A stretch of 44,784 nt of DNA from Escherichia phage mutPK1A2: the sequence record NC_047889.1; one strand, 5' to 3'. A program made the translations under genes and the position numbers. This document shows, piece by piece, positions 1 to 44,784 of this stretch. The number at the start of each line of letters is the position of its first letter. The stretch's first letter is position 1. The notes beneath the pieces were generated by a model, which had not been told where the DNA came from, did no database searches, and was given only the letters and a program-made list of their open reading frames with translations.

Positions 1-287
1 CTCGCCCTCGCCCTCGCCGGACTTTCCCCATATGGGGTCGCGCTGCGGTTGGCTTGGGAATTGGGCTAGGCTGGGCCGTCTTCAACCTGCTGCCGCAGGA
101 AGCTCGACGGGCTGGCTGAGGTTTGCCTTGTACTCGCTTAGTGGTACACAAGGAGAACGCCTAGGAAGCGCTAGGGCACGCCTTAGTATTGGACAAGGTG
201 ATTGCCTTAGTGCATCCGCTTAGGGCTTACACGGGCCGTTTTAGGGCCATTCCTGAGCGTTTGACAGGGTGTGTTGGTGTGGGCTAT
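1..287. repeat. Left direct terminal repeat (DTR), at least 287 bp
   Basis: Bases 1..287 are identical to 44498..44784 by direct reading; the right copy is cut by the window end so the true length may be longer. Begins with (CTCGCC)x3. Confidence 0.9.
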
Positions 288-329
288 CTGTTCGTTTCGT
301 CTCGCTGGCGCTCGCCTACACTCACCGCG

Positions 330-351
330 CTTGTGTATCCTTGGTATAATC
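330..351 (+). promoter_or_regulatory. Candidate host sigma70 promoter (extended -10 TGgTATAAT)
   Basis: Perfect TATAAT at 345..350 preceded by TG at 342..343; no good -35, so weak call. Confidence 0.3.
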
Positions 352-364
352 CTGATGGATAGCT

Positions 365-700
365 TAGGTTAACCTTAGTGGGTTGCCTTAGTTAAAGCCT
401 TAGTGCTTAGCTTAGTATCAACTTAGTAGTGTACCTTAGTTAGTCTTAGTGCCAGACCTTAGTGATTGCATAGCTAAAGCTATAAGATGCAATTAGGTCG
501 CGGTCGGTAGACCGCTAAGAGCAGGTAATAGTAATAAAGATGCAGTAGGAGGAACACCAGAAACCTAGCCAACCTAGTCTATCCTAGCTCTGTATCTATT
601 GCTCTTCCTTAGTCTCACATGCTAGACAACCTATGTTCACCTTAGTAGTTGTGACATGTATCACATAAATGATCTATCTTAGTGAAACTTAGTGTTGACA
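365..700 (+). repeat. Array of about 12 short CTTAGT / CCTTAGT repeats internal to the left DTR
   Basis: Recurring CCTTAGT, GCTTAGT, ACTTAGT, TCTTAGT units at irregular spacing between about 373 and 690; related CTTAGT units also inside the DTR (about 136, 183, 209). Confidence 0.7.
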
Positions 701-6288: not shown

Positions 6289-6322
6289 CCTACTACCTGT
6301 AACATTTCATTAACATAAACGT

Positions 6323-35883: not shown

Positions 35884-36078
35884 ATGATTAACTCCGAACT
35901 GGTAGATAGTGGTGTGAAGCTGGCGCCACCTGCATTAGTATCAGGTGGGTACTTCCTCGGTATCAGTTGGGATAATTGGGTGTTAATAGCAACATTCATT
36001 TATACCGTGTTGCAAATTGGAGACTGGTTTTATAATAAGTTCAAGATTTGGAGGGAGAAGCGTGAGCGTACACAATAA
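35884..36078 (+). CDS. Holin (T7 gp17.5-like)
   Basis: 64 aa; RBS AAGGAGGTG; LGISWDNWVLIATFIYTVLQIG resembles T7 holin FGLSLNEWFYVAAIAYTVVQIG; one TM helix and a basic C-terminus. Confidence 0.7.
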   Translation: MINSELVDSGVKLAPPALVSGGYFLGISWDNWVLIATFIYTVLQIGDWFYNKFKIWREKRERTQ

Positions 36079-36361
36079 ACATGCAGCTACAGAGGATGAG
36101 GTTGGCATTCTGCATGGTGCTATTACCAAGATGTTCAACAAGAAAGCACAGGCAATACTGGACACTATAGAAGGGGATCCAGATGCAGCACTGGCTTTAG
36201 TGTCCGGTAAGGACATTGGAGCTATGTGTAAGTGGGTACTGGATAATGGCATCACTGCTACACCTGCTGCACAGCAGGAAGAATCCAAGTTATCTAAGCG
36301 CCTCAAGGCTATCCGAGAGGCATCAAGTGGCAAGATTATTCAGTTTACAAAAGAGGAGTAA
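36062..36361 (+). CDS. Putative terminase small subunit
   Basis: About 100 aa from GTG 36062 behind GGAGGG (track start 36017 is TTG inside the holin gene); upstream of large terminase. Function by position only. Confidence 0.45.
   Translation: MSVHNKHAATEDEVGILHGAITKMFNKKAQAILDTIEGDPDAALALVSGKDIGAMCKWVLDNGITATPAAQQEESKLSKRLKAIREASSGKIIQFTKEE
36154..36176 (+). promoter_or_regulatory. Promoter-like element AATACTGGACACTATAGAAGGGG inside the small terminase gene
   Basis: Core CTGGACACTATAGAAGG conserved; would drive HNH and large terminase. Confidence 0.5.
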
Positions 36362-36364
36362 GAG

Positions 36365-36697
36365 ATGATAAAGCAGATAGAGGAGGAAGGATATACAATA
36401 CTGCCGGAAGGTGTGATTCTTAGTAAGAGAAAACAACCTATGCGGTTTAGTGTTAACCATAAAGGCTATGCACGTATTGGTTTGATGCTAAAAGGCAAGC
36501 AACGCTTCTTCTATCTGCACGTCATTATTGCTACTAAATTCTGTAAGAAGCTACCACACCATACTCAAGTTAATCATAAAGATGGCAATAAATTGAATAA
36601 CGCTAAAGATAACTTAGAGTGGTGTACTGCTAGCGAAACATACTGCACAAATACCATGGAGACATACAAGGAGATATTACTTTGTACTCTAAGATGA
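36365..36697 (+). CDS. HNH endonuclease (homing-endonuclease type)
   Basis: 110 aa; HKGYARIGL...FFYLHVIIATKF...VNHKDGNKLNNAKDNLEWCTASE is the HNH_3-type motif pattern; strong RBS AGGAG. Confidence 0.8.
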   Translation: MIKQIEEEGYTILPEGVILSKRKQPMRFSVNHKGYARIGLMLKGKQRFFYLHVIIATKFCKKLPHHTQVNHKDGNKLNNAKDNLEWCTASETYCTNTMETYKEILLCTLR

Positions 36698-36795
36698 AAG
36701 AACTAAGAGCTGTAGGAATGACCTATAAGCAGATAGCACAGAGCTTAAATGTAAGTGTGGCTACCGTGTTTAAACATTGTAAGGCAGGTGATTGA
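36694..36795 (+). CDS. Small helix-turn-helix ORF (33 aa), possibly the detached DNA-binding tail of the HNH endonuclease
   Basis: MKELRAVGMTYKQIAQSLNVSVATVFKHCK reads as an HTH; its ATG overlaps the HNH stop (ATGA) in the -1 frame and its stop overlaps the large terminase start. Confidence 0.4.
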   Translation: MKELRAVGMTYKQIAQSLNVSVATVFKHCKAGD

Positions 36796-38693
36796 TGGCT
36801 AAGGCAAGAGAATCACAAGCAGAGGCTCTTGCCAGATGGGAGATGCTACAGGAATTACAGCAGACCTTTCCTTACACAGCGGAAGGTTTGCTTCTCTTTG
36901 CAGATACAGTTATTCATAACTTGATTGCAGGCAAACCTCATCTGATTCGTATGCAGGCCGATATTTTAAAGTTTCTATTCTATGGACATAAATATCGCCT
37001 CATCGAAGCGCCCCGTGGCATCGCTAAAACTACACTATCAGCAATCTATACTGTTTTCCGTATCATCCATGAACCCCATAAGCGTATCATGGTAGTGTCC
37101 CAAAACGCCAAGCGAGCAGAGGAAATTGCAGGTTGGGTAGTGAAAATCTTCCGTGGCCTAGACTTCCTTGAGTTTATGCTACCGGACATATACGCTGGCG
37201 ACCGTGCATCAGTCAAAGCATTTGAGATTCACTACACGTTACGCGGCAGCGATAAGTCACCTTCTGTATCCTGTTACTCTATCGAAGCAGGTATGCAGGG
37301 TGCTCGTGCTGATATTATTCTAGCAGATGACGTAGAATCGATGCAGAATGCTCGTACAGCAGCAGGCCGCGCCTTGCTTGAGGAGTTGACCAAGGAGTTT
37401 GAATCTATTAACCAATTTGGTGACATCATCTACCTTGGGACGCCTCAGAACGTAAACTCTATCTACAATAACTTACCTGCTCGTGGTTACTCGGTTCGTA
37501 TCTGGACCGCACGTTATCCTTCAGTAGAGCAAGAGCAATGTTATGGTGACTTCCTTGCACCTATGATTGTGCAGGATATGAAAGACAACCCAGCACTTCG
37601 CTCTGGTTATGGGTTAGACGGTAACAGTGGTGCACCTTGCGCACCTGAAATGTACGATGATGAAGTGCTGATTGAGAAGGAAATCTCTCAGGGTGCGGCT
37701 AAGTTCCAGCTTCAGTTTATGCTTAATACTCGCATGATGGATGCTGACCGCTATCCGCTACGCCTGAATAACCTCATCTTCACTTCATTCGGTACAGAGG
37801 AAGTCCCTGTGATGCCTACATGGAGCAACGACTCTATTAACATCATTGGCGATGCACCGAAGTATGGCAATAAGCATACAGACTTTATGTATCGCCCTGT
37901 GGCCCGACCTTATGAGTGGGGTGCTGTTACCCGCAAGATTATGTATATTGACCCCGCAGGTGGCGGTAAGAACGGGGATGAAACTGGTGTGGCTATCGTC
38001 TTCCTGCACGGCACATTCATTTATGTGTATCAGTGCTTTGGTGTGCCGGGAGGATACCGCGAATCGTCCCTGAATCGCATTGTGCAGGCCGCAAAGCAGG
38101 CAGGTGTTAAAGAGGTATTCATTGAAAAGAACTTTGGTCATGGCGCGTTTGAGGCCGTTATAAAGCCATACTTTGAACGAGAGTGGCCTGTGACTCTGGA
38201 GGAAGATTACGCCACCGGACAGAAAGAGTTGCGTATCATTGAAACACTAGAGCCACTAATGGCGGCCCACAGGCTCATCTTCAACGCAGAGATGGTCAAG
38301 TCTGATTTTGAGTCGGTACAGCACTATCCGCTTGAACTACGCATGTCATACAGCCTTTTCAATCAAATGTCGAACATCACGATTGAGAAGAACAGCCTAC
38401 GACACGATGACCGCTTAGACGCTCTGTATGGCGCTATACGGCAATTAACTTCTCAGATAGACTATGACGAGGTTACACGGATTAATCGCCTCAGAGCGCA
38501 GGAGATGCGCGATTACATCCATGCTATGAACACACCTCACCTCCGTAGGGCAATGCTCTATGGAGATTATGGCACTGAGCGAAGAGTAACCAACACTTCC
38601 GTGGCTATGCAGCAAAGAGTATACGGTCAGAATTACAGGAGTAAATCGGCAAGCAGAAATACACTTTCTGCAAGGATTTCAAGGACTTATTAA
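36795..38693 (+). CDS. Terminase large subunit
   Basis: 633 aa; Walker A-like APRGIAKTT; size and position typical of T7 gp19. Confidence 0.85.
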   Translation: MAKARESQAEALARWEMLQELQQTFPYTAEGLLLFADTVIHNLIAGKPHLIRMQADILKFLFYGHKYRLIEAPRGIAKTTLSAIYTVFRIIHEPHKRIMVVSQNAKRAEEIAGWVVKIFRGLDFLEFMLPDIYAGDRASVKAFEIHYTLRGSDKSPSVSCYSIEAGMQGARADIILADDVESMQNARTAAGRALLEELTKEFESINQFGDIIYLGTPQNVNSIYNNLPARGYSVRIWTARYPSVEQEQCYGDFLAPMIVQDMKDNPALRSGYGLDGNSGAPCAPEMYDDEVLIEKEISQGAAKFQLQFMLNTRMMDADRYPLRLNNLIFTSFGTEEVPVMPTWSNDSINIIGDAPKYGNKHTDFMYRPVARPYEWGAVTRKIMYIDPAGGGKNGDETGVAIVFLHGTFIYVYQCFGVPGGYRESSLNRIVQAAKQAGVKEVFIEKNFGHGAFEAVIKPYFEREWPVTLEEDYATGQKELRIIETLEPLMAAHRLIFNAEMVKSDFESVQHYPLELRMSYSLFNQMSNITIEKNSLRHDDRLDALYGAIRQLTSQIDYDEVTRINRLRAQEMRDYIHAMNTPHLRRAMLYGDYGTERRVTNTSVAMQQRVYGQNYRSKSASRNTLSARISRTY

Positions 38694-39438: not shown

Positions 39439-40116
39439 ATGTTAGGTATTACAGGACAACGAAGTTTAAGTCATCAATCAAAGGTTGCCACGGAAGTGGC
39501 TCCTATTGTTGATATCTCAGAGGTGTCTGACGTTAACTCTTATCTAAACCAAAAGCACCTATCAGGTAAACAGGAAGACTATACTGTTCTGGCTAAGAAA
39601 GGTTCACGTTATTCATTGTATGCTGCAACAGGTTCTAAGCCAGAAGATAAGTGGTTGCCTTTAGAGCAAGCAACCCTACCTGATTCGAGTGCGTTAGATC
39701 TAATTGACACCATCGATGTTGAAGTTGCAAGTGCAAGCGACACAGTAGAGGTTAATGTAACCAAAGAGGGGACTGTGTGCATCCAGACGCCTATGAAGGG
39801 CTTAGCAGGTGATACAGTTTACCGGCAAGAATTGACTGCCAATATTAACCTTACCATTAATGAAAACGGAAGCCAAAGCGATACGGTTAAATTAAACATA
39901 TCAATTCCTAATTTGCCAGGAACATCTAGTGGTTCTTACTATACAGTTGACAATGTGCTGTGTACTTCTTTTGGAGACGACAGTCCTGTTATTGCCAATA
40001 TAGATGTCGATAAGGCTACCACTAACTTGATTGCTGTTACACTTCGTAAAGAGACGGCAACAGACATTAAGCTGTCTCTTGTAATTAGGTGGTCAATGCC
40101 AGTGGAGGTTGTATAA
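39439..40116 (+). CDS. Paralog family member 3 (225 aa; paralogous N-domain plus C-terminal extension)
   Basis: ATG 39439 (track start 39364 overlaps the upstream gene); N-terminal region has the same TGQ...HLSGKQ...WLP architecture. Confidence 0.55.
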   Translation: MLGITGQRSLSHQSKVATEVAPIVDISEVSDVNSYLNQKHLSGKQEDYTVLAKKGSRYSLYAATGSKPEDKWLPLEQATLPDSSALDLIDTIDVEVASASDTVEVNVTKEGTVCIQTPMKGLAGDTVYRQELTANINLTINENGSQSDTVKLNISIPNLPGTSSGSYYTVDNVLCTSFGDDSPVIANIDVDKATTNLIAVTLRKETATDIKLSLVIRWSMPVEVV

Positions 40117-43973: not shown

Positions 43974-44106
43974 GCAAGCTGCTGTACTCCAGAATACAGA
44001 AGAACTTATTCAATCAGGACGTGACCCTAAGCAGGCATACGCCATTGCCAAGGATGTACAACGTAGAGCATTGAGTAAGCCCTCTGCATCGTCTGCGAAG
44101 CAGTAA
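43951..44106 (+). CDS. Hypothetical small protein (51 aa)
   Basis: ATG with GAGGAG upstream, overlapping the tailspike 3' end. Confidence 0.3.
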   Translation: MPLIKSVKQAAVLQNTEELIQSGRDPKQAYAIAKDVQRRALSKPSASSAKQ

Positions 44107-44166
44107 CACTTAGTCTACACAAGGGCTGGTTTAGGTTGGCCCTTAGTGCAACCCAAAGGAGGTTTG

Positions 44167-44322
44167 ATGATTTGGATTCATACTTATGGAGTCGGCCCAT
44201 TCAAACGTAAGGTACTCAGGAAGATACATGACACTGAAGAGTCTGCACTGGCTAGCCAGAAGGTTCTTGGTGGAACTGTACAGGCTTACCTGAAGCAACC
44301 CAAGGGATTCTACTTAGTGTAA
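44167..44322 (+). CDS. Hypothetical small protein (51 aa)
   Basis: Strong RBS AAAGGAGGT before ATG. Confidence 0.4.
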   Translation: MIWIHTYGVGPFKRKVLRKIHDTEESALASQKVLGGTVQAYLKQPKGFYLV

Positions 44323-44337
44323 TCAAATGGAGATAAC

Positions 44338-44433
44338 ATGTTAGTAGGCTTAATTAGTTTTATCTTAGGTGTATGCGTAGGTTTCTGTATTATGCCTGTA
44401 GCAATAGCTTGTGCACTTAAGGCTGAGGTATAG
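44338..44433 (+). CDS. Small hydrophobic peptide (31 aa)
   Basis: RBS GGAG; MLVGLISFILGVCVGFCIMPVAIACALKAEV is a single TM segment; short, tentative. Confidence 0.25.
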   Translation: MLVGLISFILGVCVGFCIMPVAIACALKAEV

Positions 44434-44497
44434 GTGACCTTAGTCTTGTACAAGGATCAATCAAAGTCAAAATTTTGATATAGGCGTGTGTCAGCTC

Positions 44498-44784
44498 TCT
44501 CGCCCTCGCCCTCGCCGGACTTTCCCCATATGGGGTCGCGCTGCGGTTGGCTTGGGAATTGGGCTAGGCTGGGCCGTCTTCAACCTGCTGCCGCAGGAAG
44601 CTCGACGGGCTGGCTGAGGTTTGCCTTGTACTCGCTTAGTGGTACACAAGGAGAACGCCTAGGAAGCGCTAGGGCACGCCTTAGTATTGGACAAGGTGAT
44701 TGCCTTAGTGCATCCGCTTAGGGCTTACACGGGCCGTTTTAGGGCCATTCCTGAGCGTTTGACAGGGTGTGTTGGTGTGGGCTA
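44498..44784. repeat. Right direct terminal repeat (DTR)
   Basis: Same sequence as 1..287; T7-like genomes carry terminal redundancy used in concatemer formation and packaging. Confidence 0.9.

Follow-up and report, generated by a model that had tools for sequence, protein, structure and literature searches.

At its left end, the phage genome analysed here carries an array of CTTAGT hexamers, all in the same orientation, which judged by its layout appears to be the SP6/K1E-group (Molineuxvirinae) counterpart of the short-repeat arrays of T7 and T3. The stretch of DNA under study (the window, 44,784 bp) represents an entire linear genome. Its direct terminal repeat (DTR) of 286 bp is perfect, the left copy (1–286, plus strand) being 100% identical to the right copy (44499–44784, plus strand). 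We give an even chance to the reading that this array offers a multi-site platform to the maturation or packaging machinery at the concatemer junction.

The terminal repeat and the CTTAGT array

The left terminus of the window consists of CTCGCC three times. Its left end is 85–91% identical to K1E, K1-5-like and other Vectrevirus phages, and the tailspike region finds its matches among K1 endosialidase phages. The phage collection contained no record identical to the window. Inside the left DTR, at about 27–38, lies the palindrome CCCCATATGGGG, which is common to the window, K1E, T7 and Klebsiella lineages. Written as CCCCATA(T/G)GGG, it is found about 27 nt from the left genome end (27–38 in the window, 27–37 in L003, 18528–18538 in L037), with the exact pattern in the window, K1E, T7 and the Klebsiella lineages and near variants at the same place in SP6 and Era103 (CCCCATAGGGT/C) and in K1F (CCCCATAGGCC). 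It represents a deeply conserved terminal-repeat element. The right edge of the DTR is straddled by ATCTGTT (286–292, plus strand, and from 44784 onward in the concatemer), the A being the last base of the DTR and the preceding base a T. The whole window contains only two plus-strand copies of this heptamer. ATCTGTT is also found at the DTR edge in K1E (288), SP6 (174), K1-5, T7 (161, with a terminal repeat (TR) of 160) and T3 (232, TR of 231), and it is the seven-base signal, already described for the concatemer junction of T7, at which T7-type RNA polymerases undergo class II pausing or termination (10.1101/2021.01.11.426313; 10.64898/2026.02.12.705533).

All CTTAGT copies in the end regions are on the plus strand. 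Copies inside the DTR had been predicted, and three lie there (137–142, 182–187 and 206–211, repeated at 44635–44640, 44680–44685 and 44704–44709); the K1E DTR has the same three copies and the DTR region of other relatives one to three. Past the DTR edge the series is led by two degenerate units within 340–368, CTTGGT (340) and CTTAGG (363). In the relatives the first of these places is mostly occupied by CCTTAGG and in a few cases by CCTTAGT or CCTTATG, and the second place is also variable. The sequence TGGTATAAT at 342–350 corresponds to a consensus extended -10 element and is peculiar to this phage, the place being taken by a CCTTAGG unit in most relatives. Transcription from this element, should it be active, would run rightwards over the core array. 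This core array (374–463) comprises eight CTTAGT units starting at 374, 387, 399, 411, 422, 435, 445 and 458 and separated by unrelated spacers. It begins 88 bp past the DTR edge, so that the array lies interior to the DTR as originally described, without adjoining it. Three units with one mismatch to the motif, CCTAGC or CCTAGT, follow at 564, 573 and 583 (564–588), then four distal CTTAGT copies at 608, 641, 678 and 688 (608–693), and a further copy at 892–897, four bases past an rrn-type boxA CGCTCTTTAACAATTT (875–890). Left of the right DTR there are four copies (44109, 44142, 44313 and 44439), located within or at the ends of intergenic spacers. A single right-end copy near 44447 had been predicted; it exists, at 44438–44444, as one of these four.

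The original prediction of a repeat array at the left end holds, and its frequency is far above expectation. Between 130 and 700 we counted 15 CTTAGT copies on the plus strand and none on the minus strand, compared to 0.59 on average (sd 0.75) and at most 5 when the local sequence was shuffled 2000 times with dinucleotides preserved. Half of the copies in the unique genome (15 of 30) thus fall into a stretch of 571 bp (binomial P = 5e-21), which corresponds to a plus-strand density of about 20/kb, compared to 0.23/kb in the rest of the genome. For the four right-end copies the local shuffles gave 0.28 on average and never more than 3. No minus-strand CTTAGT was found in 100–950 or in 44050–44498. 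Regarding the repeat unit, the original prediction of a CTTAGT-containing heptamer stands only in its core: CCTTAGT accounts for 9 of the 15 copies in 130–700, and among the 20 end-region copies a preceding C and a following G are each present in 11. The invariant unit is the hexamer CTTAGT.

The core units are spaced by 13, 12, 12, 11, 13, 10 and 13 bp. They fit a period of 11.9 bp (Rayleigh R = 0.95; R = 0.11 at 10.5 bp) and are therefore out of phase with the 10.5-bp DNA helix. A helical or long-range phasing of all copies was rejected, as R outside the core reaches 0.81 and stays below the 95% value of the null distribution (0.84). Tandem Repeats Finder reported a weak 24-bp period with 69% matches, the weakness of the signal being due to the unrelated spacers; with the hexamer alone conserved, a simple tandem repeat arising by slippage was rejected as well. 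Nor are gene bodies depleted of the motif, the plus-strand counts of 10, 13 and 7 in the window, K1E and SP6 being close to the Markov expectation of about 7–12. Single copies in gene bodies at the expected frequency fit a function that needs clustering.

Directly past the core array follows a conserved block with two hairpins (464–565). It is 86% identical across 12 phages and 88–89% identical even to Klebsiella phages. Three base pairs of the first hairpin have undergone compensatory exchange (ATAGCT/AGCTAT to ACATGC/GCATGT); the second, GCGGTC-ggta-GACCGC (499–514), is invariant. The sequence AAGATGCA occurs twice in the block. Positions 1–1500 gave no Rfam match with E ≤ 1, and a structured RNA family was thus not encountered. 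The block may be part of the same junction module as the array.

Other elements of the left end are of regulatory type. An early sigma-70-type promoter, TTGACA-N17-TATACA (694–722), has its -35 hexamer at 694–699, directly abutted by CTTAGTG, the copy at 688. About 70 bp upstream of the expected start of this promoter we noticed a perfect CRP consensus, TGTGA-N6-TCACA (650–665), which is kept in K1E, SP6, CrRp3, ACG-C91 and VEc3 and degenerate in the Klebsiella lineage. The rrn-type boxA CGCTCTTTAACAAT is present three times in the early region (875–890, 1528–1543 and 1791–1806), which suggests that host RNA polymerase undergoes antitermination of the NusB/NusE type when it makes early transcripts. 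The boxA at 875–890 is followed by CTTAGTG, and one copy after boxA is found in nearly all relatives. The idea that one factor reads every copy, drawn from this boxA-adjacent copy, was rejected: the ATAGTG that follows boxA in the Klebsiella lineage has its homologue in another conserved context, boxA-GTGTCTTGATAGGC, which SP6 possesses as well. SP6-like phage promoters of the ATTTACYGGACACTATAGAAG type are confined to 2335 (first) to 41033 (last), and phage promoters comparable to phiOL and phiOR beside the array were thus rejected. A family of 16–18-bp perfect palindromes, TGTCTCACATGTGAGACA, occurs at 6322, 6505, 7305, 8716, 9932, 15010 and 31556, in several cases just upstream of phage promoters. 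A degenerate member (612–627) of this palindrome family (GTCTCACATGTGAGAC type) overlaps the CTTAGT at 608; a similar element is present in Era103. At the right end, the interval from the last conserved gene to the right DTR holds two small ORFs (58 and 31 aa; 44146–44433), both of which terminate at a CTTAGT copy or shortly ahead of one. These ORFs are absent from several relatives, and the right-end copies consequently lie at different distances from the DTR in different phages.

Conservation of the array and motif switches between lineages

The array was found in all 11 relatives compared (K1E, K1-5, SP6, UAB_Phi78, GRNsp51, SE29, CrRp3, ACG-C91, VEc3 and two Klebsiella phages), equally far from the DTR edge in each, as expected if the original prediction was right. 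Its carriers are phages of E. coli, Salmonella, Klebsiella and Citrobacter, four host genera in all, and themselves belong to at least two phage genera. When the 11 relatives were aligned with MAFFT, the columns of the core hexamers are 91% identical to the window, compared to 54% for the spacers, and the distal hexamers are 82% identical, compared to 54% for the surrounding sequence. The relatives keep a spacing of 10–13 bp, and the number of core copies ranges from 5 to 8, varying by whole units. This pattern shows that the hexamer is under selection, and not the spacers. At the right end, the pair of copies 33 bp apart is kept in K1E, SP6 and GRNsp51, and CTTAGT copies left of the right DTR are also kept in CrRp3 and Klebsiella phages. 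Ten further metagenomic or isolate contigs that cross the junction show the same cluster beside GCTATCTGTT.

The feature is ordinary as far as the window alone is concerned, being common to SP6, K1-5 and K1E. In the published Molineuxvirinae genomes (SP6, K1-5, K1E, UAB_Phi78 and others) the array has the same hexamer at the same positions relative to ATCTGTT, and the window differs from them in detail only, for example by TGGTATAAT at 342–350.

Arrays of the same build with a different motif were found in other lineages. Era103, a member of the same subfamily as the window, has CCTTATG units, and K1F, a T7-like phage recorded on E. coli (a K1-strain phage according to a cited title), has no CTTAGT and CCTACAG units instead. 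The Klebsiella F4M1D/Kp7-like lineage (L032, L034 and L037) carries almost no CTTAGT and has at the equivalent place 11 units of the CATAGTGCA type in 290 bp, in a single orientation and including runs with a spacing of 11–12 bp. The arrays of Era103, K1F and this Klebsiella lineage resemble that of the window in their place after the DTR and in their single orientation and differ from it in the motif. Other Klebsiella phages (IME184, K44PH129C1 and K1-ULIP33) have CTTAGT. Five perfect DnaA boxes (TGTGGATAA) in one orientation were noted in the terminal repeat of the F4M1D/Kp7-like lineage (18565–18724 in L037; also in L032 and L034). In K1-ULIP33 (L012, 1–800) the left end is a mosaic, with a CTTAGT array, ATCTATT at the DTR edge and, beyond it, a promoter region that shares 95% identity with the CATAGTGCA lineage; a promoter-proximal ATAGTG is found alongside a CTTAGT array.

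The array motif tracks the phage lineage and not the host. As the motif differs between phages of the same host, a host protein is unlikely to be its reader, and a phage-encoded reader that co-evolves with the motif would be the simplest explanation. The window encodes both subunits of a T7-type terminase on the plus strand, a gp18-type small terminase (36062–36361; PF11123, DNA_Packaging_2, E = 5e-16) and a large terminase (36792–38693; PF22530, E = 2e-35). An HNH endonuclease ORF (PF13392) lies between the two genes (36365–36697); in K1E a homing endonuclease splits the large terminase gene instead. The small terminase of CTTAGT phages is 78–97% identical to that of the window, compared to 67% in the CATAGTGCA lineage; the large terminase, with values of 79–99% and 76.5%, is removed to nearly the same degree in the two groups. 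The small-terminase differences of the CATAGTGCA lineage are concentrated in residues 44–75, which have few or no substitutions among CTTAGT phages. K1-ULIP33, whose promoter region derives from the CATAGTGCA lineage, combines a CTTAGT array with a small terminase of the CTTAGT type. This correlation between the small-terminase patch and the array motif is suggestive only, as it comprises two clades and one mosaic and most of the genome backbone co-segregates with it. No solved structure homologous to the small terminase was found, and no DNA-binding motif is known for this small-terminase family. The small terminase is our most likely candidate for the reader of the array.

A possible platform at the concatemer junction and competing explanations

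In the replicative concatemer one DTR joins two genomes, and the junction then forms a zone of about 1.3 kb with some 20 co-oriented CTTAGT hexamers: 4 are found to the left of the DTR, 3 belong to it and 13 follow on its right, 8 of the latter making up the core array. In a packaging role the hexamers could act as multiple weak binding sites of low specificity for a phage-encoded maturation protein. An oligomeric small terminase of the gp18 type would bind them, possibly together with phage RNA polymerase paused at ATCTGTT, and the clustered binding would mark the concatemer junction and set its polarity. The terminase would then cut at both DTR edges, with duplication of the DTR, so that packaging would start and end at the right places. 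The strong, strand-exclusive enrichment at both genome ends and the presence of small and large terminase genes of the T7 type are in favor of such a function, as are the selection on the hexamer, the layout common to T7 and T3, the lineage-bound motif and the distinct small-terminase patch of the CATAGTGCA lineage. Simple binding to one face of the DNA is not to be expected, as the 12-bp period is out of phase with the helix. Several copies in promoter contexts, namely the copy at 688 by the -35 hexamer and three copies around the K1-5-type promoter, count against it, as packaging does not require them.

These promoter-linked copies lead to the main rival explanation, which we consider unlikely on balance: the hexamers, located on the roughly 0.9 kb that enter first, would be recognised by an early phage protein or one delivered with the virion, or would modulate host RNA polymerase, thereby controlling genome entry or the strong early promoters, and their packaging-like placement would be secondary. 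The left-end copies are indeed all confined to the first 900 bp and point the way transcription runs, and besides the CTTAGTG that abuts TTGACA at 694 and the copy after boxA in nearly all relatives, two of the three hexamers of K1-5-type promoters are located upstream of the -35 and one in the spacer; the spacer of T7 promoter A1 contains CTTAAAG. Such a role does not account for the conserved right-end copies, which lie left of the right DTR and are the last to enter. Moreover, the core array is found upstream of those early promoters that are conserved, and no promoter is anywhere near the copies inside the DTR. Again, the different motifs in phages of the same host make a host factor unlikely, and K1-ULIP33, with its promoter-proximal ATAGTG next to a CTTAGT array, indicates that the two sets of repeats need not match.

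A part in replication or recombination of the genome ends seems decidedly improbable to us. The hexamers might here restrict how far exonucleases resect past the DTR while concatemers form, or might guide the nicking and priming by which the DTR is duplicated. Their presence in one orientation on both sides of the DTR and the conserved hairpin block after the array would suit this idea, and the five DnaA boxes in the DTR of a related lineage hint at ends that recruit replication-type proteins. However, the array is accompanied neither by an AT-rich unwinding region nor by a nearby phage promoter (2335 being the first and 41033 the last), it lacks iteron-like features, with a unit of 6 bp compared to 17–22 bp, and the hexamer contains none of the primase trinucleotides, which are GTC for T7 and GCA for SP6. 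Primase sites as such were rejected on the same comparison, made by eye. We regard it as very improbable, and already disfavored, that the array has no function and arose neutrally when replication slipped in non-coding DNA. The variation in copy number by whole units among relatives and the weak 24-bp periodicity would be in line with slippage, but the hexamers remain 91% identical while the spacers have diverged to 54%, the array persists across phage and host genera, its units keep strictly to one orientation, both genome ends retain conserved dispersed copies, and sister lineages have equivalent arrays with a different motif.

If the packaging function is correct, it can be taken one step further. 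The arrays may form a lineage-specific address code read by the small terminase, an extension that we put forward tentatively and hold to be rather doubtful. Motif (CTTAGT, CATAGTGCA, CCTTATG, CCTAAAG or CCTACAG) and small-terminase patch, switched together, would then set the packaging specificity. Co-infecting related Autographiviridae would in this case each package their own concatemers only, and the deeply conserved ATCTGTT and CCCCATAGGGG would supply the common chemistry of cutting and pausing. In T7-like phages junction recognition, duplication of the terminal repeat and exact cutting of the ends are still poorly understood (PMC13595956). The present comparison makes the arrays testable, as it provides a conserved layout, a selected hexamer, motifs that nature has switched between sister lineages infecting one host genus, and a protein patch that is a candidate for co-variation. 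It would also have a practical bearing on packageable phagemids and engineered K1- or Klebsiella-specific phages, in which the array would need to be kept and matched to the terminase.

Comparison with T7, T3 and other repeat-based systems

The short-repeat arrays on either side of the T7 and T3 terminal repetition were reportedly named SRL and SRR by Dunn and Studier in 1983. To our knowledge, no function has been assigned to the arrays beside T7-type terminal repeats since they were first noticed in T7. A literature search for SRL/SRR, CCTAAAG and CTTAGT yielded no description of the arrays, with the SP6, K1-5 and K1F genome papers and the T7 refactoring paper beyond its reach. We compared the window with the T7 and T3 sequences by direct reading. 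T7 carries CCTAAAG three times in its 160-bp TR (17, 41 and 60), ATCTGTT at 161, a CCTAAAG-like array at 175–355 with a spacing of 12–13 bp and a period of 13.05 bp, and repeat copies left of the right TR at 39621–39700. For T7-like Yersinia phages 11–34 repeats have been described in the interval that separates the left TR from the first phage promoter, with further repeats between the last promoter and the right TR and a variable copy number (PMC5923468).

The likeness to T7 that had been proposed for the array is borne out with respect to the layout; the role in concatemer processing and packaging that came with it is putative in both phages. In the window as in T7 and T3, copies are present in the TR, ATCTGTT is located at the right edge of the TR, an array lies just inside the left TR and a few copies lie left of the right TR, the unit measures 6–7 bp in a single orientation, and terminase genes of the T7 type are present. 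The left array, the right-end set, the TR-internal copies, the orientation, the spacing and the junction context of a T7-group short-repeat array are thus all found in the window. The spacing is regular with non-repeated spacers in both, with a period of 11.9 bp in the window compared to 13.05 bp in T7. The unit itself is different, CTTAGT in the window and CCTAAAG in T7; as it is lineage-specific even within the T7 group (CCTACAG in K1F), we did not treat identity of the unit as defining. Further differences concern the distance of the core array from ATCTGTT, about 88 bp in the window and about 14 bp in T7, the lack of a phiOL/phiOR-type phage promoter by the array of the window and the conserved hairpin block that follows it.

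Iterons of replication origins are a less fitting comparison and were rejected: the unit has 6 bp and not 17–22 bp, no phage promoter is located within 2 kb, and no AT-rich tract was seen by eye in 287–700. Recognition sites with multiple repeats are familiar from other terminases, namely the hexamers of P1 pac and the R sites of lambda cosB. The window, with its putative recognition repeats, resembles these systems in that several short oriented units are clustered by a terminase cut site. It differs from them in that the terminase belongs to another family, the repeats are placed on both sides of a duplicated 286-bp repeat, and the junction contains a polymerase pause site.
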